A stretch of DNA of 64,000 nucleotides from a bacterium (GCA_043800755.1 JAZDMQ010000017.1:34297-98296), one strand, 5' to 3'. Shown: positions 1 to 37,156, counted from the first letter of the stretch. Notes: generated from the letters alone by a model not told the origin. Made by a program: numbers and translations.

Positions 1-2130
1 GGTGGTCGCGCAGTCGGTCGCCACGGGGTCGGATCCCGCAATGATCAGGCCCATGGCAACGGGGAAGGACCCCGGTCCACCCCAGGCACCACCCTGGTCA
101 CCCTCGCCAGCCCAAAGGGCATCCACCACCACATAGTCGATCATCATGGTGCCCTTGCCGTTCTTCTTGCGGATGGCGTTGATCTCGGTAGACATCTCCG
201 CATACTTCAAATGCGGCAGGGCCAGCTTGAAGGTCCCATAGACCTTGTGGGTCGGGAGGCCGATGGTGGTGTTCTTCAGGGACAGCGAGGTCCCGGCCAC
301 GGTGTGACACTTCATTTGAGGTACATTGATCAATACATCCACTTCCTTGGCCACCGAGGTCGGGATCGCATATTCCGCATTGCAGAGCCCGATCGTCTTC
401 ACCCAGGTGTAGGGGGCCTCCCCCACGGGCTCGATCACGACCCTCATGCCCTGGGCATTGAGCTCGTCCGCGATGGCATAGTATCCCCAGTGGGCCAGGG
501 AGGCGGAGTCGGCACCGGATCGGGTTCCCTCACCGATGATGATCTTCTTCGCCCCGGCTTCCCACGCGATCTTGCAGATCTCCCGCACGATGCGGACATC
601 GGTCACATGCGCCTGCTGCTCGGGAGAGGTAAGGGACTGCCCCTCATGCATATCTACATAGGAGTTGACCAGGTTGGGCTTGATATAGACGACATCACCC
701 TTCTTCACCGGGAAGTTGCCCGCCAGCTCGATCGCCTCTCGGGTCAGCTTGCCGATATACTCCTCAGACTCCTTGCTCCATTCTACCCGGATGATGTCCA
801 TCTTGCGGCCGGGATAGCAGGCCTGCATGAAGGTCCTGGCGGTGTTGATCTTTGTGGTATTGAGCGCCAGATCCATATTGTCGGCCTTCACGATGCCCAC
901 TCTGGCCTTGGCCGGTCCGGTGAACTCCGGGGGATCATAGGCATTGTCCCAGGCCAGGACGCCGCCGGCCGAGGACGGCCATCTCCAAGCATGCATGGGC
1001 GGGTTCAACTTCTCGCGGACCTCGGAGATCTTCCGGCCCACCACCTCGATCTTGGTCAGATCGGCAGTGCCCAGGCCATACTGCTCGGCCATACGGAACT
1101 GCCCGTAGTTCGCCGGGTTGAAGCCCATGCAGGCGGTCATCACGATATCCGGCTCTAAGGCTCCGGGGCCGGCGAGGATCAGGCCCATGTTGACCGGGAA
1201 GGTATCGGGTCCCACGGCCCCCTGCTCCGCCTCACCCACGCTCAGGGCATCAATGACGGTGTAATCCACCAGGGTGGTGCCGGTGCCGCCCTTCTTTTTG
1301 ATGGTGTTGATGTCCGTGCACCACTCCGCGTATTTCAGGTGGGGCGCTGCCAGCTTGAAGGTCCCATACACCTGGGCGGGCATCAAGCCCACGGTGCAGA
1401 GCTTCAGGCTGCAGGTGACGCCCGCCACCGTGTGGCACTTGGGGTTAGGCACATTGATGATGACATCCGCCTCTTCCGCTGCGATCTGGGGGATCGCGTA
1501 CTCGGAATTGCAGAGGCCCAGGGTCTTCACCCATACCACCGGGGAGGCCGCGGGGTCATCGAAGTCCAACAACTCCACATTGATTCCCTCTGAAGCCAGA
1601 TCTTCCACCATGTGGTTATATCCGTACCCCTGCATGGCGGCTAAGGCATGTCCGGCGTTAGAGGCCTCACCGATGACGATCCGGCTGGCCCCCGCTTCAT
1701 GAGCCATCTTGCACAGCTCGCGGACGACGCGGGCGTCGGTGGTCTGACATAGCATCTTGACGGGATCCTTCGACGCCTGAGGCTGATAACCCCACATCTT
1801 CCAGAAATCGGTGAAGGAAATGACGGTGTTGATCTTCAGCAGTACCACATCGCCCTGCTTCACCGGCCAGTCGCCCGCCAGCTCCACCGCCTCTCGGGTC
1901 AGCTTGCCGATGTATTCTTCCGATTCCTTGGTCCACTCGGCGCAGATCACATCCATCTTGTGCCCGGGGACGGCCGCCTGCATGAAGGTCCGGTCGGTAT
2001 TCATCTTCCAAGTCTTCAGGCAAAGGTCAATATTGTCGGCCTTGACGATGGAGACCTTGGCCAGCGCCGTTCCGACCATCAAACTCATGGCCATTACGGC
2101 TAAAACCGATATGAACAATGCTTTTCTCAT
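1..2130 (-). CDS. Exported protein with two tandem DUF362 domains (3' end runs off window start)
   Basis: Minus-strand frame open from ATG at 2130 to position 1; it is absent from the ORF track only because it is unterminated. N-terminus MRKALFISVLAVMAMSLMVGTALA is a signal peptide. Two successive domains each align with the neighbouring DUF362 protein (EWTKESEEYIGKLTREAVELAGDWPVKQGDVV...; KLAAPHLKYAEW...; second copy EWSKESEEYIGKLTREAIELAGNFPVKKGDVVYIKPNLV). Plus-strand ORFs 211..1158 and 1339..1593 are its mutually similar antisense shadows. Confidence 0.7.
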   Translation of the reverse strand, partial: MRKALFISVLAVMAMSLMVGTALAKVSIVKADNIDLCLKTWKMNTDRTFMQAAVPGHKMDVICAEWTKESEEYIGKLTREAVELAGDWPVKQGDVVLLKINTVISFTDFWKMWGYQPQASKDPVKMLCQTTDARVVRELCKMAHEAGASRIVIGEASNAGHALAAMQGYGYNHMVEDLASEGINVELLDFDDPAASPVVWVKTLGLCNSEYAIPQIAAEEADVIINVPNPKCHTVAGVTCSLKLCTVGLMPAQVYGTFKLAAPHLKYAEWCTDINTIKKKGGTGTTLVDYTVIDALSVGEAEQGAVGPDTFPVNMGLILAGPGALEPDIVMTACMGFNPANYGQFRMAEQYGLGTADLTKIEVVGRKISEVREKLNPPMHAWRWPSSAGGVLAWDNAYDPPEFTGPAKARVGIVKADNMDLALNTTKINTARTFMQACYPGRKMDIIRVEWSKESEEYIGKLTREAIELAGNFPVKKGDVVYIKPNLVNSYVDMHEGQSLTSPEQQAHVTDVRIVREICKIAWEAGAKKIIIGEGTRSGADSASLAHWGYYAIADELNAQGMRVVIEPVGEAPYTWVKTIGLCNAEYAIPTSVAKEVDVLINVPQMKCHTVAGTSLSLKNTTIGLPTHKVYGTFKLALPHLKYAEMSTEINAIRKKNGKGTMMIDYVVVDALWAGEGDQGGAWGGPGSFPVAMGLIIAGSDPVATDCATT

Positions 2131-2391
2131 GGACACTCCTCAGATTATTTGCTTACCAGCAATTGATGGCACAGAAATACCTCAACCTTGGCAAGAAATC
2201 CTCTCCTTTCACCTCCCTTCTTTTGGATAATGACTTCATCTCCCCGCCTTTCTCACCTCCTTCCGATGCGAACCCCAGAGATAGATAGAGAGTCTACTCC
2301 AGGGATTGCAAGAAAAAGGCGATTGTGCTTCGTGAGATAGGCGAGATGTTAGCGAGAGCAAGACCGTCCGCACAGAACTCGGAAACGATCT

Positions 2392-2419
2392 TTTGCTGGC
2401 CTATTATCACCCTTTGGAT
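2392..2419 (-). promoter_or_regulatory. Sigma70-like promoter for the tandem-DUF362 gene
   Basis: On the minus strand: TTGACA, 16-nt spacer, GATAAT (TG just upstream). Lies ~250 nt upstream of the ATG at 2130, implying a long leader. Confidence 0.4.
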
Positions 2420-2508
2420 TTTTTTGTCAACAGTTTTTTGGGCGAAAGAACCAGGACGAGATCAGTACCCCGTTTCCCCTCAATTCCTCGATTCAAGCCA
2501 ATTTCTGA

Positions 2509-3678
2509 TCACTTGCCAGGGGCGCCGTACCTCTCGTCCCAGTTCTTCACCCCTCCATATTCAGAAGGCCAGCGGTTCTCCTCCGGGACGACCTTGAATT
2601 TCTTGGCCACATTCGCGATGCTCTCGCCTTCCACCGCGATCTGGGCCAGGTCGTCTACCCCCAGGCCATTCTGGGCTGCCATGGTGATGTGGCCGATATT
2701 CTTGGGATTGAAGCCCATGATGGCGGTACAGACTGAATCTACAGCCACCGGATCGGCTCCGGCGATGATCAGATCCATATTGATGGGAGTTCCATTCAAA
2801 GGACCATTGCCCTCCATCCCCCATATCCCATCCACTACCGTGTAGTTGATCTTGAAGATCGAGGCCATATCGGTGATCCACTCCGGGATCTTCTGGTGGG
2901 GGGCCCCATATTTGAAAAACCCATAAACGCGCCCGGCCATCAATCCGACGGCCACATTCTTGAGGCCCACGGTCACCCCGGTCATGGAATGGGTCTTGAG
3001 CGCGGGGACACTGATGATACAGGTCGCCTCGGTCACCACCTTGGGCACCGCATACTCCGGATTGGCAAGGCCTTTGGACTTCACCCAAACCACAGGCTCA
3101 CTGGTGAAATCCACCAATTCAACCTTGATCCCCTCCTTCTCCAGCTCTTCCACCATGGCTACATAGCCGCTCTGCATATAACCAGCCCAGCCGTCTCCCG
3201 CTGCCGGCCCTTCGCCGATGATGATCCTGCTGGCCCCGGACTCTTTCGCCATGACCGCCAAGGCCCTCACGATACGGGGATCGGTCAGACATGCCTGATA
3301 ATCCTCCTCGGTCAGCTTTCCGCTGTACCAGAGGAAGAACATGGAGGCAACCAGGTTGGGCTTGATAAGGACTACATCGCCCGCCTTGACCGGCCATCCT
3401 CCTGCAAGCTCCACGGCATCCCGCACCATCCCCTCGATGGCCTTGTCGCTTTCCTTCGGCCATTCGGCCCGCAAGTAGTCGAATTTCCGAGTCGTGTTGA
3501 CTCCCTGGGAGATGCTCCTCTCCCAGTTCATCCTCCAGCTCTCGGCAACCAGTTCATGTTTTGCGGCCTTCACAATCGCTACTACCGGCTTTTCTCCGGC
3601 CCAGGCGCTCACGAGCCCAGCCCCAAATAGGAGCAGGAGCCCGATGACCAGGCCAGGCAATAGTTTCCTGCTTTTCAT
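2509..3678 (-). CDS. Exported DUF362 family protein
   Basis: 389 aa. Signal peptide MKSRKLLPGLVIGLLLLFGAGLVSAWA. DUF362 hallmarks (KPNLV, GxxxxGDG, TCIISVPALKTH, VDGIWGMEGNGP). Paralog of the tandem protein upstream. Confidence 0.75.
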   Translation of the reverse strand: MKSRKLLPGLVIGLLLLFGAGLVSAWAGEKPVVAIVKAAKHELVAESWRMNWERSISQGVNTTRKFDYLRAEWPKESDKAIEGMVRDAVELAGGWPVKAGDVVLIKPNLVASMFFLWYSGKLTEEDYQACLTDPRIVRALAVMAKESGASRIIIGEGPAAGDGWAGYMQSGYVAMVEELEKEGIKVELVDFTSEPVVWVKSKGLANPEYAVPKVVTEATCIISVPALKTHSMTGVTVGLKNVAVGLMAGRVYGFFKYGAPHQKIPEWITDMASIFKINYTVVDGIWGMEGNGPLNGTPINMDLIIAGADPVAVDSVCTAIMGFNPKNIGHITMAAQNGLGVDDLAQIAVEGESIANVAKKFKVVPEENRWPSEYGGVKNWDERYGAPGK

Positions 3679-3733
3679 TGTTTGCCTCCCTCTGGCGAAA
3701 CAGCATTCATCTCAGCAGCCAGATCCCGATGTC

Positions 3734-4582
3734 TTAGGTTTGGGTAGGTGTCCACCCCTTGGCCTTTGCCTTATCCACATGGGATGAGAATCGAATGTAT
3801 TCGGGGCTTGACTCATAGCCATTTATCTTTTGGAAGGCCTCTCTGGCGCGGTCGAACCATTGAACGGATTCCTGACGCTTGTTGGCAATATGATTAGCCC
3901 ATCCTAAGAAATCCATGAACTCCGGGTCATTCGGCTCTTGCTCGTTTGCTGCCTGAATGAGTCGTTGGGCCTCCTCGAGCTTCACCTTTTTCTCCAGATA
4001 GACATAACCCAAATAGCCAGATACCTTGGGATCCTTGGGGTCAAGGGAATAGGCCTTATTGATTGCCTCTTCTGCCGAATCGAGGTTTTCCATACGAGTG
4101 TAAAGATCGCTCAGATACCTTAGGTAACGGGCCTCTGAGGCAACCCAAGGGGTCAGGGAAAAATCACGCACCCGATAACCGGCACTCATCTTGAGGCAAC
4201 CGATGCCGAGCGCCCTAATCTTCTCATTCCCCTCATCCCTCATCAGCTTCACGATCACCGAAACGATACTCCCTTTTTCCAGAACTTGAATGGTCTCCCA
4301 GGACTTGGTGCCCGAAAAGATGGTCGAGATCTCGGGAGACTTTAAAAACTCGTCCGCAGTTTTCCCTCGTTTCAGACCCGAGGAGGAAAGCTCAAAAGCC
4401 TTGCCCGAATCCCCCTGAACAACTGCCTGGAGGAACTGGTTCGCCACTGCCGCCGGATCCGAACCCTGTTCAGCCCGCGATGCCTGCAACCCAAAGAGGC
4501 CCATCAAAATTGCCAGGAGCAGCAATCCGGCCCCCGCCCATCTGAAGGTTCTTCTTCCCATCCTTACATTCTCCTTTCCCAA
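3734..4582 (-). CDS. TPR-repeat lipoprotein/secreted protein
   Basis: 282 aa. N-terminal hydrophobic signal (LLLLAILMGLFGLQASRA). C-terminal half has repeated TPR-like A/Y/L spacing (AINKAYSLDPKDPKVSGYLGYVYLEKKV...). Confidence 0.6.
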   Translation of the reverse strand: MGKENVRMGRRTFRWAGAGLLLLAILMGLFGLQASRAEQGSDPAAVANQFLQAVVQGDSGKAFELSSSGLKRGKTADEFLKSPEISTIFSGTKSWETIQVLEKGSIVSVIVKLMRDEGNEKIRALGIGCLKMSAGYRVRDFSLTPWVASEARYLRYLSDLYTRMENLDSAEEAINKAYSLDPKDPKVSGYLGYVYLEKKVKLEEAQRLIQAANEQEPNDPEFMDFLGWANHIANKRQESVQWFDRAREAFQKINGYESSPEYIRFSSHVDKAKAKGWTPTQT

Positions 4583-5377: not shown

Positions 5378-6190
5378 TCAGTGTTGATCGCGACGGGGGC
5401 GGATAGGACGGGCTTTGAATTCTTTCACCAGTTCAACCATTCGCTCAATGACCTTTTTGAAGATCGCCTCCCCCTTCTCCTCGGTGGCTACCGTGGGGTC
5501 TCCTAAAACCCCGGTCTGAGAAAAAGTACTCCACCACTCCATCATGGCGACCGGTGAGCTGCTACCCAGATCATGCCAGATGAATTGGGAAGGGAGCATA
5601 CCGATCTCTTTCTTCGCCAAGGACATGTTTGCCCTCTCCTTCTCCAGGTGAAGGGTCAGAGAGGTCTCCAGCTCATCGGCATGCGCCATTCCTCCAGGAA
5701 AGGAGGATTCCCTTACCTCCTTGAGGAAATCTCCCACCAGGGAGGTATAAATGAAGGAGGCACAAAGGGCCTCGGTCTCCATGACGGTGCGACGGGCCAC
5801 GATGTCGAGGAAGGGGACATTGGAGCCATGACCGTCCACGATGAGAATCTTCCTAAACCCATGATAGGCGACGCTTTTGGTAATATCCAGACAATAATCA
5901 ATGAAATGCTCCGCGGCAATCCCGATGGTTCCTGGAAAGTCGATGTGATGCCAGTTGAAGCCGTATGGCACCAGAGGCATTATCAGCACTTCCTCCGGGA
6001 TGCGCTCGGCCGTCGCCCGGCAAACATTGGTTACCAGGAAATTATCCGTCTCCAGGAAGAGATGGTGCCCATGATTCTCAATGGTTCCCACGGGCAGGAG
6101 GATCACCCGTTGCTGGGCGATAGCCTCTTTCATCTCCAGCCAGGTGAGTTCCCCGTACATATACTTCTTCCCCTTCGCTTGATGGATCAT
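5378..6190 (-). CDS. Creatininase-family amidohydrolase
   Basis: GELTWLEMKE...LLPVGTIENHGHHLFLETD...VDGHGSN motifs typical of creatinine amidohydrolase / ArfB / MftE family. Start set at MIHQAKG (ATGA overlap with upstream PHP stop at 6187-6190); the ORF track extends to 6238. Confidence 0.7.
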   Translation of the reverse strand: MIHQAKGKKYMYGELTWLEMKEAIAQQRVILLPVGTIENHGHHLFLETDNFLVTNVCRATAERIPEEVLIMPLVPYGFNWHHIDFPGTIGIAAEHFIDYCLDITKSVAYHGFRKILIVDGHGSNVPFLDIVARRTVMETEALCASFIYTSLVGDFLKEVRESSFPGGMAHADELETSLTLHLEKERANMSLAKKEIGMLPSQFIWHDLGSSSPVAMMEWWSTFSQTGVLGDPTVATEEKGEAIFKKVIERMVELVKEFKARPIRPRRDQH

Positions 6191-7045
6191 CTCCGACTCT
6201 CCCTTCTCCCGTGGTTGGCGTAGAGACCCTCTACCCACTGATACCCATTATTCTCCACCCTTTCCAATTCTACATCCGGCTTGATTCTCTTCCCGCGGAA
6301 GTCAGACCCGGCCGTAATCAAGAGGCCCTTCTCCTCGGCATAGGCCTCTAGTCTCCGAGTCTCATCAGGGTTGTACTGAGACGAATAAGCCTTCACCCCC
6401 AGGAAGCCCAAGGGAAGAAGGCGGTCGAGGACCTCGGGCGCCACCCTTCCCGGGTGGGCCAGGATGGGCACCCCCCCCTAATTCGCGAACCAGCTCGATT
6501 CCTTCCCCTGTTCCGCAGGTTTTCAGGGGGACATAGGCAGACTCCCCCTCCAAGAAATAATTCCAACAAAAAGTTGAGAATGGGAGATCCCGACCTTTCC
6601 CCCCCCAATGCAAGGCTGGAGTCGGGGGGCCGGCTCGATTTTCAGAATGCGCGATCAAGCTATTCAGCACGGCAGCGGTGGTGGGGCCCTCCCCTTGCCT
6701 CCATCCAGAACCTACTCCAAGGTCAAAGGGAACCTCAATCCTCGCAGGATCTGAACCCCTTTGCAGCCAGGATCTCATCGAGCGTTTTGATCTCCATTCG
6801 ATGAGGTAGCATAAAAGATGGAGATCGAATCTTTCGAATCTGGTGCTGAGTTCCAGGGAGGGAATAAACTCCACTCCCGTTACCGAGCCCAGGATCTCCC
6901 CTTGGGCCAAGCTCGCCACGGAATCATGGTCCGCGAAGGAAATAGCCTTCAGACCCAGGGAGGCAGCCACTCCGAAGATCTCCCCCGGGGTCCATCCCCC
7001 ATCCTCACTGGCAATCGTATGAATGTGCAGATCGACTCTTCCTAA
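6187..7045 (-). CDS. PHP-domain metal-dependent phosphoesterase, reading frame broken at a C8 homopolymer
   Basis: N-terminal part VDLHIHTIASEDGGW...ISFADHDSVAS...LHLLCY and C-terminal part VPILAHPGRV...GFLGVKAY are in two frames (ORFs 6365..7195 and 6187..6471). The junction is at the C8 run 6471-6478; removing one C restores ELGGVPILAHPGRV. Start approximate. Confidence 0.6.
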
Positions 7046-7230
7046 CAAGCCCTTCCGCCCCTCGGTCTTTATAGACCAACCCTGCCCTCTCGTCAAGAGG
7101 ATTGGTGGGAGGAGGAGGAGGAGAGGTCTCCCGCAGGTTTTCTCGCAATGTGCTCGTGTTAGACCACCCTGGACAAGCCGCCCGGAAATAACCAAGCGAA
7201 GGGCCCGATCGAATTGCCCCTGTTTTTGGC

Positions 7231-7293: not shown

Positions 7294-7369
7294 GGGCGAA
7301 TAGCTCAGGTGGGAGAGCGCTTGCCTTACAAGCAAGAGGTCACGGGTTCAAATCCTGTTTCGCCCACCA
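7294..7369 (+). tRNA. tRNA-Val (anticodon TAC)
   Basis: Cloverleaf: acceptor GGGCGAA/TTCGCCC; D-arm GCTC-AGGTGGGA-GAGC; anticodon stem CTTGC, loop CTTACAA; T-arm ACGGG-TTCAAAT-CCTGT; discriminator A and encoded CCA. Confidence 0.85.
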
Positions 7370-7392: not shown

Positions 7393-7469
<77 letters not shown>

Positions 7470-13039: not shown

Positions 13040-14394
13040 ATGGATTGGGAACGCATCGGAATCATCACCCTGTTATTCGCCTTGGGCTTCCTTGTCAGCG
13101 TGGTGTTGGCCGGACCCCCTTCCGGCAAGCTGGCTGATCCGCAGGACCCCTTCTTCCCCTCCCGCCTCTCGGCTGCGGGGGGCAAGGCGATCAAGGCCTC
13201 GGATTTCGAACCTCCAGAGGACTGCGGCGAGTGTCACGACCAGATCTACAGCCAATGGGAAGGTGGAATGCACGCTAATGCCTGGAAGGACCCTGCCTAT
13301 ACGGCCCTCCATGCCCTAGCCAGCAAGGAGACCCGTGGCCTCGCAGACCGCTATTGCATCGCCTGCCATGCGCCGGTCGCCGTCTTGTCTGGAGAGGTCC
13401 AGCCGGGAAAGGAGTTCAATGTGGGGGAGCTCTCCCAGAAGGGGGTGCAGTGCGATTTCTGCCATACCGTTTCCGGAAGCTTGGGAATCGGCAATCTGCC
13501 GGCGGTCTCCTCTCCCGGTCCGATCAAACGTGGTCCCTTCAAGGACAGCCAATCTCCTGCCCACGAGGTGGCCTTCTCCCCCTTCCATACCTCCGCCGAA
13601 TTCTGCGGGATGTGTCACGATGTCTACCATCCGGCCAACGGCCTCCCCTTGGAGAAGACCTACACGGAATGGTCTGAGGGACCCTATCCGAGCCGGGGGG
13701 TAAAATGCCAGGATTGCCACATGACCCCCGGGATCATTAAATTTCAGCCAAACCCCGGGGCTGCGGCCACCATGGGGCCCGCGCGGGAGCATATCTGGAC
13801 TCATAATATCGTGGGGGCCAACGCCGCCATGGCCTCCCACCTCGGGTTCAGGGGCCATAGCGAAATGGCTTTGAAGCGGCTAAAGTCGGCAGCGAGCCTG
13901 GAGATCCTCAGTCCAACGCAGGCCAGGGCCGGAGAGGTCGCCACGGTTAAAGTCAAGGTGGCCAATGTGGGCGCTGGCCATTTCCTGCCGACTGGATTGA
14001 CGGAGAGCCGGGAGATGTGGCTGGAGGTCACGGTAACGGGGCCGGGGGGAGCAAGGCTCTTCGTCTCCGGAAAGACCGACGAAAAGGGGGAGATCGATCC
14101 GGATGCCGTGCTCTACCAAACGGTCTTCGCCAATACCCAAGGAGACCCAGTGGGGGCTCGGGTCTGGGAGGCCGATCATTTGCTCTGGGATCACCGCATC
14201 CCCCCCTCGGCCATTCCCTGGAGCGGTTCAGCTTCCCGATCCCAGCGGGGATGAAGGGCAAGTGCCAGGTGGAGGCCAGGCTGCTCTATCGATCCTTCTC
14301 GCAGGGCGTGGTCAATCTGCTTCTGGGAGAAAAGGCCCCCGCCTGGCCCATCTATGAGATGACCCAGGCAGCGGGCTCCTTTGAGATTGACTGA
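13040..14394 (+). CDS. Membrane-anchored pentaheme c-type cytochrome (frame switch at a C7 run)
   Basis: N-terminal TM anchor. Five CxxCH sites (CGECH, CIACH, CDFCH, CGMCH, CQDCH). ORF 13040..14254 and its continuation 14017..14394 join if one C is added to the C7 run at 14200-14206 (...WDHRIPPLGHSLERF...). Confidence 0.7.
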
Positions 14395-15348: not shown

Positions 15349-17199
15349 TCAAGGCAACAGGGACCCCTCCCAGGACCGCAGGAGGTCCTGGGCCTGGAAT
15401 CCCCAGGGCCAGAGCAAGGTTTCGGCAGCCTTGGCCAGATATTCCAGATATTTGGAAAGGCCGTACCCCACTTCCTCCTTCCATGGAGGGACCTTCACCC
15501 TCCGCCCTTTCTCCTTTGCCTCCACCTCCGCGAGCAGGAATTGAACCTCCTCTCCGGGATGTAGCCTCACCCCCTGCCGTTCTAATTCTTGGCTCGCCAA
15601 GGCGGTCCAGTTGTCCTGGAGATAATCCTCCGGCCTGTGGGAGAGGGTGCGGCAAATCAGTAATTCCTCCCGATCCACCTCCCCCCGCTTGAGCCTCTCG
15701 GCATATCCTTCCGCGAGGGCCAATATCCAGGGAATCCTTTCCTCCAGTTCGCTGCCACCTTTGGCCGAGGCCATCACCTGGAGCATCTCCAATTGGGCCC
15801 TTTGGACGAAAAGAGGGATATCTCCTCGCCGCAGTTCGATGCCCCTCGCCTTGATCTCGCCCGAGGCAAAGACCCCAAAGTAGCGATTCGCCACAGAACG
15901 GGAGTTGTCCAGGCGCGAGGAGGGAAAGGCGATCCAACGATAGATGCCCTCCAGACTCAAGGGGATACCGGTGACCTCCCCGATCCGGCGGCAGAGCTGC
16001 AGAAGATTCGCCTCCCTCATCCCCTCCTTCTGCACCCACAGGGAATCCACCAGGGCATGGAGCACCCGAAACCCCGCGGCCTCCGCGATCTCTTTGGCTT
16101 GGAGGAGCTTCTCGCGTCCAAAGGCGGTTACCACCTCGTGGGCCTCGATCCTTCCGAATCGGGCATTGCGGTATCCCAGATAGCCGAAGCAGGTGACCAG
16201 GATCCATTTGAGGGCCACCTGCCTTCGATCATAGACCCCCCCTTCCTCCCCCTGAGCCTCCTTCATCCGCTCCTTATATCTCCTTCGCTTCTCCAAGATG
16301 GGCTCCAGGGTTTTCGGCACCAATCCCCTCCGCCTCTGGCAGAGCACATATCCCACCTCCGGGACCCTCTCCCCTTGCCCCCCTCGACAGCAGGCGCAAT
16401 CCACCGTCTCCGGGGAAATATTATGCCTCACCATGATGGCCGGATACATGGAAGAGAAATCGATTTCTCCCACTCCCTGGTGCAGGCCGAGGACAGGTTG
16501 ATAGACCAGGCCTCCCTTGTCGGCCACCAAGAGCTGCGAGGCGCTTTTGAACCTCTCTGGCTCCCCCTTATTCCAGGGGATGAGGATGCCGTCCTGAAGG
16601 GCTCGATCCATTTGCATGGAGGTGATGCCGGTGCCCGGGGAACGCCGGGCCATCCTTTGCAGGGAGATCTTGGTGAGGCGCGAGAGCTCGATCAACCCTT
16701 CCAGGCCAGTCGCTTCCCAGAGGAAAGAGTTGCGGCGATCTATATGCCAACGCCCGAACAGGGGATAGGAGGGGGCCTGAGAAAGGATCCGACCGTAAGA
16801 GAAATAGGAGCGCCTCCTCCCAGGTAATGGCCCTCCTCACTCGCTCCCGGTCCAGCTTCAAAGGGATGCCCAGGCGCTGAGCCAGAGAGAACAGAGAGGG
16901 AAGGAGGTGGGAATCCCCCCAGCTACTCAGGATCAGGTCAGGATCGTAGTGGCTGATCAAACCCGCCCCTCCCTTGATCAGCTTCTCCCCATCTCCTCCC
17001 TTCCACATCCAGCATTCTCCCCCTACCTTGACCTGGATAGAAGGAAGCCTCCCCGGAGGCAGATGGCGAATCTCCTCCGCCGGCTCGACCTCCATCTGGC
17101 GCCGAAGATGACCCCCCCCTCCTCGATGAGCCAGAGGACGATCGTGTTAGCAGAGGGATAGAGGTCGAAGATCCAGCCCCTACCTCTTTTCCTTCCCAT
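15349..17199 (-). CDS. Divergent family-B DNA polymerase (E. coli Pol II-like) homolog with degenerate catalytic motifs; reading frame broken twice
   Basis: Three minus-strand frame segments align colinearly with E. coli PolB. (1) ~17199-17110: WIFDLYPS at the Exo I position (DIET becomes DLY). (2) 17095..16568: ISHYDPDLILSSWGDSHLLPSL...LGIPLKLDRE vs NYDPDVIIGWNVVQFDL...RLPLRLGRD (Exo II). (3) 16695..15349: motif A IDFSSMYPAIM; motif B KWILVTCFGYLG (vs KIIMNAFYGVLG); motif C HALVDS (vs YGDTDS); KKRY becomes ANRY. Frame breaks at the C8 run 17112-17119 and near 16700. Confidence 0.6.
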
Positions 17200-35737: not shown

Positions 35738-37156
35738 CTAAAGCCCCATGATGAGCCTGGCAAAGGAAAAATAGGCGTAAACCAGTACCGCTGCGACGAT
35801 CCCTAGGGTGACGATGATCCCTGGGCGGAAGACCTTCCGCACCTCGGGGGAGACGAGTTTGGGGAGGACATAGTAAAGCCCCAGGAGCACAAAGATCCCT
35901 TGGATGGGGATCAAGAAAGCCCCCTCGATCGTAGCCGCAATCTGCACCAAGAAAACCGGCCGCCAGTGGAAGGTGTAGACCAGGATCATGTTGGTAAAGG
36001 CGAAGAAGATGATCCAGGCCCGGTACTGCTTGTGCCAGGGTACCTTCTCCAGCTTGGGGAAGAGCACCCGAGCACAGTCGCAGAGCAAGCGGGGCCAGCC
36101 GGTAAAGGCGGCGATCTCCGTGCTGAACAAGGCGGCAAAGGCCCCCAAGAGAAAGAGGTAGTGCCCTGCCTTTCCAAACATGGAACTGAAAATCTCTGCG
36201 CAGTTTAAGGCCACTGCGGCCCCGGCCGGGAGGATCTCCTTGGGGTGGAGCACCCCGGCCCCCGAGGCGACAAAGCCGATGATTACCACCACCCCGATGA
36301 GGCTGGCCATCAGGGTATCGGCCCTCACCATGCGGAGCCAACCCTTCACCTTCTGGGCATCCTTCACCGACATCTGCTTCAAAAGGGACTCCGGGGCACT
36401 TTTCCCCTGTTGGCCCAAACGGGCCATCCCATATCCGGCCCCCAAGGTCCAGTAGGTATACCAGCACTGACTCGCGAAGCCTCCTCCAGCCCAGCCCAGG
36501 ATTGGGATCATCTCGCGGAGGGAATTGGTCACCTTGTATTTCTCCATTGCCCAAGTCGGGACCTCAGGGATCTTCATCACGAAGATGCCGCTGATCAATG
36601 AGCCGAAGCCGGGAATGAGCCGGTAGCCGGTGTATAGGACCCCCAACACCATCATGGCCACCAGGACCGTCATGATCACCTTGAGTCGATCCACGGATCC
36701 GGACCAGATGAGGTAGATGATGACCGCGGAAAGGATCCACCCCCAGAGTATTGGTGGGATGAAAGGTACTAAGGCGTTGGCAAAGGCCGTTCCCGCGGTG
36801 ATCAGGGCCCCGATGGAGATGGCACCGGCCAGGAGTTCCACGATGCCCACCACCCATACCCCCCATTTTCCGGGAGGGATGCGGCCGATCATGTCGATCA
36901 TCCCTTCCCCGGTAAAGGTGGTGTAGCACGCCCCTCCATAGCCGATGAAGGCCTTCAAAACAATGGCCCATACGGCAAGCCAAACGATGCTAAAGCCGAA
37001 CAGGGCACCCAGGCGGGTGGAGAGGATAACCTCTCCTGAGCCAATGTATTCGGCTGCCCAGATGTAAGCCGGACCCAGCATCCCCAAAATCGTCAACCAT
37101 CGCCGGGGGGCCTCCTGGATCTCCTTCATTTTTGATTCCTTCCCCTTCTCTTCCAC
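35738..37156 (-). CDS. NRAMP-fold (APC superfamily) transporter lacking the canonical DPGN metal-binding motif
   Basis: 472 aa, ~11-12 TM. N-terminal block LGMLGPAYIWAAEYIGSGEVILSTRLGALFGFSIVWLAVWAIVL aligns with the MntH block [35 protein letters not shown], but DPGN is replaced by EYIGSG. Confidence 0.6.
   Translation of the reverse strand: MEEKGKESKMKEIQEAPRRWLTILGMLGPAYIWAAEYIGSGEVILSTRLGALFGFSIVWLAVWAIVLKAFIGYGGACYTTFTGEGMIDMIGRIPPGKWGVWVVGIVELLAGAISIGALITAGTAFANALVPFIPPILWGWILSAVIIYLIWSGSVDRLKVIMTVLVAMMVLGVLYTGYRLIPGFGSLISGIFVMKIPEVPTWAMEKYKVTNSLREMIPILGWAGGGFASQCWYTYWTLGAGYGMARLGQQGKSAPESLLKQMSVKDAQKVKGWLRMVRADTLMASLIGVVVIIGFVASGAGVLHPKEILPAGAAVALNCAEIFSSMFGKAGHYLFLLGAFAALFSTEIAAFTGWPRLLCDCARVLFPKLEKVPWHKQYRAWIIFFAFTNMILVYTFHWRPVFLVQIAATIEGAFLIPIQGIFVLLGLYYVLPKLVSPEVRKVFRPGIIVTLGIVAAVLVYAYFSFARLIMGL

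Follow-up and report, generated by a model that had tools for sequence, protein, structure and literature searches.

Predicted exported DUF362 proteins with a LarA-like fold form a conserved three-gene module with a TPR protein

Sequence comparison identifies a conserved three-gene module, TPR-DUF362-(DUF362)x2, at the left end of the 64,000-nucleotide (64-kb) stretch of bacterial DNA analysed here (the window), and its three products are most likely all exported by the Sec pathway to the periplasm of an uncultured Gram-negative host, as predicted from their signal peptides. According to a structural model, DUF362 is a LarA-fold domain, a cousin of lactate racemase. The most informative point, missed by an earlier interpretation made from the DNA alone (the sequence-only reading), is that this predicted fold combines the counterparts of the LarA tethering lysine and catalytic histidine with lar genes in related clusters. 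In our preferred reading, to which we assign a probability of roughly 40%, the module would encode periplasmic LarA-fold proteins with a nickel-pincer nucleotide (NPN)-type cofactor and hydride-transfer chemistry, one of them a tandem pseudo-dimer, together with a TPR partner.

All three genes (TPR, B and A) lie on the minus strand (Table 1). A six-frame profile scan of the whole window returned exactly three DUF362 domains, and both DUF362 genes score far above the Pfam gathering threshold of 24 bits for PF04015 (gene A, E=3e-46, 158.4 bits, in two stretches; gene B, E=3.4e-45, 155 bits, covering profile positions 1-199 of 200). The two modules of gene A are 57% identical to each other, and gene B is 45% identical to the N-terminal and 43% to the C-terminal module. 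Pfam searches of the A, B and TPR proteins gave zero Fer4 matches. The sequence-only reading, which is partly supported as a whole, had thus correctly described three DUF362 domains in two genes, with one coding for a tandem polypeptide, the lack of a ferredoxin module, and an exported TPR partner encoded upstream on the same strand. An identical gene B protein is present on 10 contigs; among named genomes, the closest relatives are MAGs with the labels NC10 and Desulfobacteraceae.

Table 1 Features of the module in the window, with predicted elements as called by the method given.
Feature	Position	Strand	Basis	Remarks
TPR gene	4582..3734	minus	ORF	282 aa from TTG 4582, 275 aa from ATG 4561 (start called elsewhere)
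TPR protein	3734..4582	minus		Predicted Sec signal peptide, ~100-aa N-terminal domain, TPR at ~residues 150-250, highly conserved C-terminus
Gene B, single-domain DUF362	3678..2509	minus	ORF	389 aa
Gene B signal peptide	3678..3598	minus	Inspection	
Gene B key codons	Asn108 3355-3357; Lys228 2995-2997; His230 2989-2991; Lys240 2959-2961; His261 2896-2898	minus	Invariant residues / LarA mapping	
Terminator-like hairpin, T-rich tail	2456..2473	minus	Consensus scan	36 nt past gene B stop codon
Gene A promoter and long 5' leader	2131..2430	minus	Promoter scan	
Gene A, tandem double-DUF362	2130..1	minus	Translation	ATG 2130; continues past left window edge
Gene A signal peptide	2130..2059	minus	Inspection	
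Gene A N-terminal DUF362 module	2058..916	minus	Pfam	
Gene A C-terminal DUF362 module	915..1	minus	Pfam	

Inspection of the N-termini, combined with a hydropathy rule applied over 120 homologues, gave predicted Sec signal peptides with a positively charged n-region, a 12-18-residue h-region and an A-x-A site. The n-, h- and c-regions are recognisable by inspection in gene A (MRKALFISVLAVMAMSLMVGTALA, followed by KV), gene B (MKSRKLLPGLVIGLLLLFGAGLVSAWA, followed by GE) and the TPR protein (ending in LLLLAILMGLFGLQASRA, followed by EQ). Orthologues likewise have hydrophobic N-termini whose sequence is not conserved, and the conserved mature part begins directly after them; since the A-x-A site is followed at once by conserved mature sequence, the DUF362 domain is placed outside the cytoplasm. 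This bears out the earlier call of Sec-type signal peptides for A and B. The Tat motif S/T-R-R-x-F-L-K is absent from A and B, which have RK or SRK only, and is present in the sister paralogues P0053, P0054, P0056 and P0059 and in a 481-aa protein of locus L011, implying folded, cofactor-loaded export in that sister group. Export had been regarded as exceptional for DUF362, a view that does not hold: signal peptides are present in almost every one of the ~75 closest homologue clusters, to which the Tat-bearing group is sister, and DUF362-CBM9-dockerin proteins had already been noted in 2017 (PMC5742341).

The relationship to LarA is visible only by fold search and profile-profile comparison. 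An AF2 model of gene B (pLDDT 92.2, pTM 0.90, with a low-confidence N-terminal helix) was compared with the PDB using Foldseek, and the top 18 matches are all LarA or LarA-like NPN enzymes; the modelled fold is that of the LarA N-domain. DUF362 and Lar_N share a Pfam clan, and genuine lactate racemases reach about 26 bits on the DUF362 HMM (threshold 24) over LarA residues 82-245. Alignment of 145 DUF362 with 8 LarA sequences in hhalign gave a probability of 79% (E=1.6e-5), a value reached only with these more diverse alignments, as comparisons with 3 LarA and then 123 near-identical LarA sequences were not significant (2-3%). Sequence searches of the PDB with gene B and the DUF362 profile returned only weak isocitrate dehydrogenase and ribosomal matches, and gene B matched PF04015 only, with no hit to Pfam Lar_N (PF09861) or LarA_C (PF21113) even at E≤10. 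The function had been described as uncharacterised, in agreement with our literature search, which found no biochemically characterised DUF362 protein.

LarA uses His174 as general base and tethers NPN through Lys184. Three independent alignments (HMMER and two hhalign runs) place gene B His230 on His174 and Lys240 on Lys184, with the same spacing of 10 residues, and the strand-loop ...IISxxxxK-T-H-x9-K-N aligns with LarA ...LISEGFIESH174-x9-K184-S. Lys240 is invariant in the gene B homologue alignment, and K-x-H-x9-K is present in 230 of the 238 unique DUF362 sequences, in each case with a His after it at +13 to +26. Gene B has all family-wide motifs (KPN, K-x-H-x9-K-N, the downstream His and DPVAxD), and every paralogue, both tandem modules included, strictly conserves K228, H230, K240, H261, D133, R135 and D270. 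A search for conserved ligands across the copies, proposed earlier, accordingly finds K-x-H-x9-K and the downstream His in all three domains of the window; in gene A the motif reads K-C-H-x9-K in both modules. The C-terminal module of A retains the full motif set, whereas the N-terminal module has KIN, LKL and GALEPD where other copies have KPN, LKN and DPVAxD.

Other parts of the LarA active site, in which His108 is the second catalytic histidine, Arg75 binds phosphate and His200, 16 residues past the lysine, is a nickel ligand, are less well matched or less clearly placed. His108 is not conserved, being aligned to a variable Ala/Pro position in an IGEGPAAGD segment, and neither is Arg75, whose SDxTRP segment aligns with IKPNLV and places Leu/Phe at that position. 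A conserved arginine, Arg135, lies at another place in the protein. The candidate counterpart of His200 is His261 of gene B, but the profile alignment puts His200 within an insertion specific to LarA; the conserved downstream His stands at +21 from the lysine in the exported clade, at +15/16 in cytoplasmic DUF362 and at +16 in LarA. Some genuine LarA homologues are reported to have a single catalytic His.

Surveying other genomes for co-occurrence of DUF362 and TPR genes, as had been suggested, shows the trio in nine or more independent loci from metagenomes or MAGs, with changing contexts, and the TPR orthologue lies directly upstream of the B orthologue in window/L001, L007, L009, L013-L018, L098 and L099. 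The FmdE and creatininase genes that lie upstream, like the Fe-ADH and SDR genes downstream, were considered as module parts and rejected, being syntenic only in the closest relatives. In L097, a gene B orthologue (80% identical) is followed by a 783-aa tandem gene, and a divergent same-strand string reads PBP-DUF362(402 aa)-PEGA-LarE-LarB-LarC, with LarE, LarB and LarC all above NCBIfam curated cut-offs and no other LarA-like candidate in the 21 kb examined. The larB gene of L097 is an exact 859-bp repeat; an assembly chimera was rejected for larE-PEGA-DUF362-PBP-B-A, which forms a unique path between both repeat copies, and the AFOR-larB junction was seen independently in L017. In L011, five DUF362 genes, one of them a 789-aa tandem, are clustered, and inside this cluster a LarE (337 bits, cut-off 150) begins 12 nt past a Tat-signal DUF362. 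A fragment of larB lies 3.5 kb away from the tandem gene of L017, and in L102 a genuine LarA homologue lies 3 kb from a DUF362 paralogue (P0421 context).

Such neighbourhoods are a minority. With LarE, LarB and LarC seeds, phmmer searches covering ~100 loci as well as the window detected lar genes in L011/L012, L097 and L017 only. Of ~18 loci with usable flanks, just 2-3 have lar genes nearby, and there they lie closest to the 402-aa or Tat-type paralogues rather than to B/A. There are none in the 64-kb window, none within ~10 kb of the module in L001, L007, L009, L013, L014, L016, L098 and L099, and none within ~10 kb of the 402-aa paralogue in L100 and L101. Six further contexts (P0032, P0027, P0054, P0052, P0413 and P0410) contained no lar biosynthesis genes, and Tat-type paralogues have genes for AFOR, OYE-type reductase, SDR and SnoaL as neighbours, lar genes being absent there too. 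In many loci, the genes next to exported DUF362 include one for an ArsP_1-family permease resembling Cu/Zn efflux transporters.

NPN is made in the cytoplasm and is, to our knowledge, among the rarest organometallic cofactors, known until 2026 only in LarA-type racemases. In our preferred reading, the exported DUF362 proteins would bind a nickel-pincer-type pyridinium nucleotide, or a close relative, at the Lys/His site, and would act in the periplasm on a small hydroxylated molecule by hydride transfer, in a racemisation, an epimerisation or a redox-neutral isomerisation. The two modules of the gene A product would form a fused pseudo-dimer, the N-terminal one having diverged at secondary motifs, and the TPR protein may be a partner or chaperone outside the cytoplasm. 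Since export is of the Sec type, cofactor supply would have to follow export, and the ArsP_1-family permease is one candidate route for it. This suggests that a rare nickel cofactor may be used outside the cytoplasm too.

Sec export, the absence of lar genes near the module in most loci and the lack of conservation of His108 and Arg75 argue against an NPN enzyme. Sec signal peptides without RR imply that B and A cross the membrane unfolded, which argues against cofactor loading in the cytoplasm, and we know of no extracytoplasmic NPN loading. All three points also fit an alternative that we hold to be almost as probable, in which the Lys/His pocket binds a metal ion, a nucleotide-like or phosphorylated ligand or a solute, or carries out catalysis without a cofactor, and nearby lar genes are coincidental or serve other proteins, such as a Tat-exported paralogue or a LarA elsewhere. 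Sec-type export suits a cofactor-free or metal-only protein, and the frequently adjacent ArsP_1-family permeases, like the Nramp metal transporters near the L011 cluster, are in keeping with a role for metal. What such a pocket leaves unaccounted for is the coincidence of family-conserved residues with the cofactor-tethering Lys and catalytic His of LarA, the 12-nt distance between DUF362 and larE in L011, and the one-strand order of larE-larB-larC after DUF362-PEGA in L097, where the 21 kb examined contain no other LarA-like candidate.

The module was compared with its closest known systems. The LarA superfamily (Lar_N PF09861 plus LarA_C PF21113; PDB 5HUQ, 7S91, 9EIA and 9Q3J) comprises NPN-dependent 2-hydroxyacid racemases and epimerases, and shares with the proteins described here the strand-loop motif, a further His beyond the Lys and lar biosynthesis genes, which here adjoin related clusters. 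Unlike cytoplasmic LarA, these proteins are predicted to be Sec-exported, have a C-terminal half of the form VVDG...EG...AGxDPVAVD, include a tandem fusion, and lack the Lar_N/LarA_C match as well as His108 and Arg75. With cytoplasmic DUF362 (PF04015) they share the invariant K-x-H-x9-K-N...H, KPN and DPVAVD, and differ from it in their signal peptides, an extra N-terminal segment of ~40 residues (gene B residues 38-75) and the position of the downstream His (+21, not +15/16); the 4Fe-4S ferredoxin modules or Cys-rich C-terminal extension often found in cytoplasmic members are absent. DUF362-CBM9-dockerin proteins from lignocellulose-degrading metagenomes (PMC5742341) likewise place DUF362 outside the cytoplasm, but as carbohydrate-binding and cellulosome fusions in Firmicutes-type systems, whereas here DUF362 is free-standing or tandem, with a TPR partner, in a diderm organism. 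A non-LarA family of NPN enzymes, the NphT type, was found in 2026 through the same neighbourhood logic that we propose here, from lar genes nearby and a His/Lys pair (Nat Chem 2026, PMC13524815); those enzymes have an aldo-keto-reductase TIM-barrel fold, are cytoplasmic and biochemically proven, whereas DUF362 is LarA-like and known from sequence and model.

About 15% of surveyed genomes encode larBCE without larA, so that further NPN users are to be expected. A broader proposal, which we consider unlikely, is that DUF362 forms a second large branch of NPN enzymes and is one of the users in larBCE+/larA- genomes, with the exported clade active outside the cytoplasm, its Tat-type members pre-loaded and its Sec-type members (A and B) loaded after export by a new route of NPN export and attachment. 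The ArsP_1-family permease and the exported TPR protein would then be candidate components of that route, which would resemble the way haem or flavin is attached in the periplasm. If DUF362 proteins do use NPN, thousands of unannotated members of a large family without a function would gain a cofactor, and if this holds for the exported clade, nickel-pincer chemistry, and possibly a cofactor-export pathway, would extend to the periplasm. If they do not, the locus is still a well-defined, conserved but rare module without an assigned function.

The TPR protein scores above gathering for Pfam TPR_14, TPR_19 and TPR_2, and reaches 28 bits against PF23914 (TPR_CcmH_CycH), under the cut-off of 42. 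It had been taken for a lipoprotein, which is not borne out: an L-x-x-C lipobox was sought in nine orthologues, none of which has a Cys in or after the signal peptide, and a protein lacking the lipobox Cys is not a lipoprotein. Its RR pair is not conserved among orthologues. CcmI/CycH-type periplasmic TPR chaperones, which serve cytochrome c maturation, are likewise exported, and an analogous task here would be to hold an apo-protein while its cofactor is attached outside the cytoplasm; they differ in that the PF23914 score here is under cut-off and the module has no Ccm genes. Weak NCBIfam matches to PEP-CTERM, pilus and exopolysaccharide TPR proteins, the recurrence of TPR and PEGA partners and the loss of several secondary motifs in the tandem N-terminal module would suit an envelope role in surface-layer or exopolymer assembly, with DUF362 as a non-enzymatic scaffold. 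We consider such a role quite improbable, as the strict conservation of K228, H230, K240, H261, D133, R135 and D270 is typical of an active or ligand-binding site and every one of these TPR matches is far under its family cut-off.

In the window, gene A comprises 710 of 783 codons, the last 73 lying past the left edge. Extension of the contig leftward, which the sequence-only reading had recommended, was achieved through other contigs that carry the identical neighbouring gene (L001, L002 and L003), where the full-length protein has 783 aa and consists of two DUF362 modules and nothing further. A tandem ORF of 783-789 aa is also found in L007, L009, L011, L013, L016, L017, L097 and L098, and the tandem form is rare overall, carried by one cluster at 50% identity out of 1.84 billion representatives. 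An artefact, be it two genes fused by a frameshift or misassembly or an N-terminal membrane anchor on cytoplasmic domains, is largely refuted and hardly credible, for although the tandem gene is split in two long-read assemblies (L014, 469 + 348 aa; L099, 561 + 219 aa), these are exceptions to an ORF that runs uninterrupted in eight or more independent assemblies drawn from separate projects, and the n-region, h-region and A-x-A site lead at once into conserved mature sequence.

Between genes B and A, a terminator-like hairpin may separate the TPR-B transcript from gene A, although this is a pattern match only, of a kind no commoner in the region than in shuffled sequence. The sequence-only reading had proposed a strong promoter and a long, purine-rich leader for gene A; promoter and length stand, but purine content is 55% overall and high only locally. 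A riboswitch or known cis-regulatory RNA is unsupported, with no Rfam match in the leader at E≤1 and a consensus structure of just 4 pairs (-0.5 kcal/mol) in RNAalifold for seven orthologous leaders, and a 28-codon leader ORF was discarded on inspection, its frame not being kept in L014. The leader of ~265 nt contains two GGAGGTGA motifs, perfect complements of the anti-SD, and the predicted promoter, TTGACA-16-GATAAT at 2430..2403, matches at 11 of 12 positions ~265 nt upstream of the ATG. Its TTGACA is retained in seven of nine orthologous loci, 259-345 nt before the ATG of the tandem gene.

Our analysis shows that gene A, the tandem double-DUF362 gene, gene B, which carries a single DUF362 domain, and the TPR gene directly upstream of gene B form a conserved Sec-exported TPR-DUF362-tandem-DUF362 module. 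Pfam assigns two DUF362 domains to gene A (E=3e-46) and one to gene B (E=3.4e-45), and a profile built from homologues, run over the six frames of the 64-kb window, finds exactly three such domains, all in these two genes. This confirms the sequence-only reading, which had described three domains in two genes, one of them a tandem polypeptide; its statement that a ferredoxin module is missing was also borne out, with none detected by Pfam in any of the three proteins. Contigs that encode a sequence-identical gene B protein reach further left and give a full tandem protein of 783 aa, consisting of a signal peptide, two complete DUF362 modules and nothing more. Its two modules are 57% identical to one another, and each is 43-45% identical to gene B.

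Features of the module and of the intergenic region between genes B and A
Feature	Position in window	Strand	Basis or placement
Gene A (tandem DUF362)	ATG at 2130, off the left edge after 710 codons	minus	ORF and Pfam
Gene B (DUF362, 389 aa)	3678..2509	minus	ORF and Pfam
TPR gene	4582..3734	minus	ORF and TPR families above Pfam threshold
Terminator-like hairpin	2473..2456	minus	between genes B and A
Near-consensus promoter, TTGACA-16-GATAAT	2430..2403	minus	between genes B and A

Each of the three proteins opens with a basic n-region, then a hydrophobic h-region of 12-18 residues and finally an A-x-A site, and a conserved twin-arginine motif is absent from all of them, in agreement with the Sec-type signal peptides read earlier in genes A and B. 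Among orthologues, these N-terminal segments vary in sequence while keeping their character, and the conserved mature protein begins directly after them. The label of lipoprotein given to the TPR protein was wrong, because the nine orthologues compared all lack a lipobox cysteine. Across 120 homologue clusters scanned with a simple rule, Sec-type signal peptides were found in almost all of the nearest ~75, the few complete members missed by the rule still being hydrophobic at the N-terminus; four proteins of a sister group carry clear Tat motifs (TRRKFIKD and similar), and more distant DUF362 relatives are cytoplasmic with a Cys-rich C-terminal extension. Predicted export is a trait of the clade. 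Exported DUF362 had been put forward as unusual; the export is real here, but these clade-wide signals and the extracellular DUF362-CBM9-dockerin proteins published in 2017 (PMC5742341) show that it is not unprecedented.

The order TPR, B, A is repeated in nine loci, namely the window and its counterpart L001, together with L007, L009, L013, L014, L015/16, L017/18, L098 and L099 (L numbers denote homologous loci on other metagenome or MAG contigs). The flanking genes change between loci, being creatininase, FmdE and Fe-ADH in the window and desulfoferrodoxin, Zn-ADH and transketolase, or PEGA, PBP and a permease elsewhere, so that the trio, and not the wider neighbourhood, is the unit. Though conserved, the module is rare: among 1.84 billion representatives clustered at 50% identity, a single cluster matches the tandem protein end to end, and just 14 clusters reach E<1e-30. 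Among named records, the nearest come from MAGs labelled as candidate division NC10 (88% identity) and as Desulfobacteraceae (79%). At two loci the tandem gene appears as two ORFs (L014 9995-12350 and L099 5113-7463), most likely through indel errors rather than biology, since it is a single ORF in eight other assemblies; the contig names of both suggest long-read assemblies. In the window itself, two ORFs at 6365..7195 and 6187..6471 (minus) overlap and resemble a single gene with a frameshift; the longer ORF has a weak PHP-domain match, and tRNA-Val (7294-7369) and tRNA-Asp (7393-7469) follow on the plus strand just past the pair.

The strong promoter and long leader attributed earlier to the tandem gene are both present, with near-consensus hexamers and a leader of ~265 nt, and TTGACA is kept in seven of nine loci, 259-345 nt 5' of the ATG. 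Within the leader (window 2131-2396, minus), GGAGGTGA, which is exactly complementary to the 16S rRNA 3' end, occurs twice, ~90-135 nt before the true start codon, and its first copy is followed by a 28-codon ORF (MKSLSKRREVKGEDFLPRLRYFCAINCW). One or two GGAGGTGA motifs and a TTGCCAAGG motif are likewise conserved in orthologous leaders; the reading frame of the 28-codon ORF is not. The gene A leader has no match in Rfam, and no conserved structure was found in it.

Comparison with LarA, the nickel-pincer-nucleotide (NPN) lactate racemase, shows that DUF362 has the LarA fold. DUF362 and the LarA N-domain share one Pfam clan, and three nickel-dependent lactate racemases of Loigolactobacillus (P0125-P0127) score 25.7-26.1 bits on the DUF362 model (gathering threshold 24) over LarA residues 82-245, while also matching Lar_N and LarA_C. 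Gene B itself is confidently modelled by AlphaFold (pLDDT 92.2, pTM 0.90, alignment of 60 sequences). With a LarA reference sequence taken from the PDB, the HMMER profile alignment and two hhalign runs alike place gene B ...CIISVPALKTH230SMTGVTVGLK240N... against LarA ...LLISEGFIESH174FFAGFSGGRK184S...; the best hhalign run, with 145 DUF362 and 8 LarA sequences, gives a probability of 79% and E=1.6e-5. In published work on LarA, Lys184 is the cofactor tether, His200 a nickel ligand and Arg75 the phosphate-binding residue, with His108 and His174 acting as catalytic bases. Judged by these alignments, the tethering Lys184 and one catalytic His, His174, have conserved equivalents in DUF362, and His108 and Arg75 have none. 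A His after the Lys, possibly the counterpart of His200, is always present in DUF362, at +21 in the exported clade and +15/16 in cytoplasmic members, compared with +16 in LarA, but the profile alignment sets His200 inside a LarA-specific insertion. Of 238 unique DUF362 sequences, 230 contain the motif K-x-H-x9-K, as do all three domains of the locus; the N-terminal tandem module is altered at secondary motifs only (KPN->KIN, LKN->LKL, DPVAxD->GALEPD).

Genes for NPN biosynthesis (larB, larC, larE) are interleaved with the same DUF362 paralogue set in two lineages. L097 encodes a gene B orthologue (80% identical) followed by the 783-aa tandem gene and, on the divergent strand, PBP (717 aa)-52 aa-DUF362 (402 aa)-PEGA-LarE-LarB-LarC separated by 22-178 nt, the Lar proteins scoring above the NCBIfam curated cut-offs (LarE 315/150, LarB 296/175, LarC 223/90 bits); no LarA-type gene lies within its 21 kb. 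An exact 859-bp direct repeat in L097 (3276-4134 and 17358-18216) spans just larB, one copy inside larE-larB-larC and the other after an aldehyde:ferredoxin oxidoreductase gene, and could reflect either a true duplication or ambiguity in the assembly graph at strain level. Even so, the contig follows a unique path from larE through the DUF362 genes, and the second larB junction recurs independently at the end of L017, which stops inside the equivalent larB. In L011, an NCBI MAG contig, larE (337 bits) begins 12 nt past a 481-aa Tat-signal DUF362 within a cluster of five DUF362 genes, one a 789-aa tandem, alongside an ArsP_1-family permease, a 726-aa PBP, PEGA, two Nramp transporters and two PQQ alcohol dehydrogenases. 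In L102, a 402-type DUF362 lies 3 kb from a genuine LarA homologue in which all five key residues are present. Two independent lar adjacencies in ~18 loci would be unlikely by chance (p of ~0.004-0.014), a rough estimate and not proof, assuming a lar background of 0.5-1% per 20-kb locus.

Taken together, we tentatively propose (probability about 0.4) that the DUF362 pocket would hold a nickel-pincer-type cofactor and catalyse hydride transfer on a hydroxy compound in the periplasm, with the tandem protein as a fused pseudo-dimer and the TPR protein as an assembly helper. Sec export is the chief difficulty, since the cofactor would then have to be delivered outside the cytoplasm; cytoplasmic loading would fit better with the Tat-type sister proteins. 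The principal rival, which we hold only slightly less probable, is that the pocket takes another ligand and the nearby lar genes work for other paralogues. It gains from this supply problem and from the lack of lar genes in the 64-kb window and within ~10 kb at the remaining loci with usable flanks, but it is opposed by the conserved equivalents of the tethering Lys and catalytic His and by the interleaved lar genes of L097 and L011.

Undiscovered NPN users are expected by the field, and one unrelated AKR-fold family was found in 2026 through neighbourhood mining (PMC13524815); DUF362, in contrast, belongs to the LarA clan. We found no paper assigning DUF362 a function or tying it to NPN except as an outgroup, and none joining LarA, nickel-pincer and periplasmic. 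The LarA-clan DUF362 family is the known part and the exported, tandem, TPR-partnered form the new part, and the locus brings a testable hypothesis that reaches beyond it.

Other neighbours recur around related DUF362 genes. An ArsP_1-family permease (PF03773), absent from the window, lies directly beside a DUF362 gene in ~10 loci (L011, L020-L022, L024, L049, L057, L062, L064, L077), and each adjoining DUF362 protein is either equipped with a signal peptide or anchored in the membrane by its N-terminus (signal anchor); the best NCBIfam matches of the permease, to the SO_0444 Cu/Zn efflux family and to SaoE, score well under the curated cut-offs. A third paralogue type, of ~402 aa (L009, L011, L097, L100-L102), is far better conserved between lineages (63-89% identity) than the gene B type. 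Its usual downstream neighbour is a small exported PEGA-domain protein, and a Peripla_BP_6 protein of double length (~720 aa) often comes before it; this sub-module is not present in the window. In L095 and L096, a Tat-signal DUF362 sits among aldehyde:ferredoxin oxidoreductase, OYE-type FMN/FAD reductases, SDRs, SnoaL-like proteins and a nitrilase-family (CN_hydrolase) protein, an enzyme make-up that suggests a catabolic pathway for some compound. Elsewhere in the window, a multihaem cytochrome (Cytochrome_C554/MtrC-like, 13040-14254) and an Nramp-like transporter (35738-37156) are encoded, neither adjoining the module, and a 448-aa ORF (15349-16695, minus) has a match to the family-B DNA polymerase profile that is confined to roughly its first 200 positions, and is either a truncated PolB-like gene or a divergent one, here on bacterial DNA.
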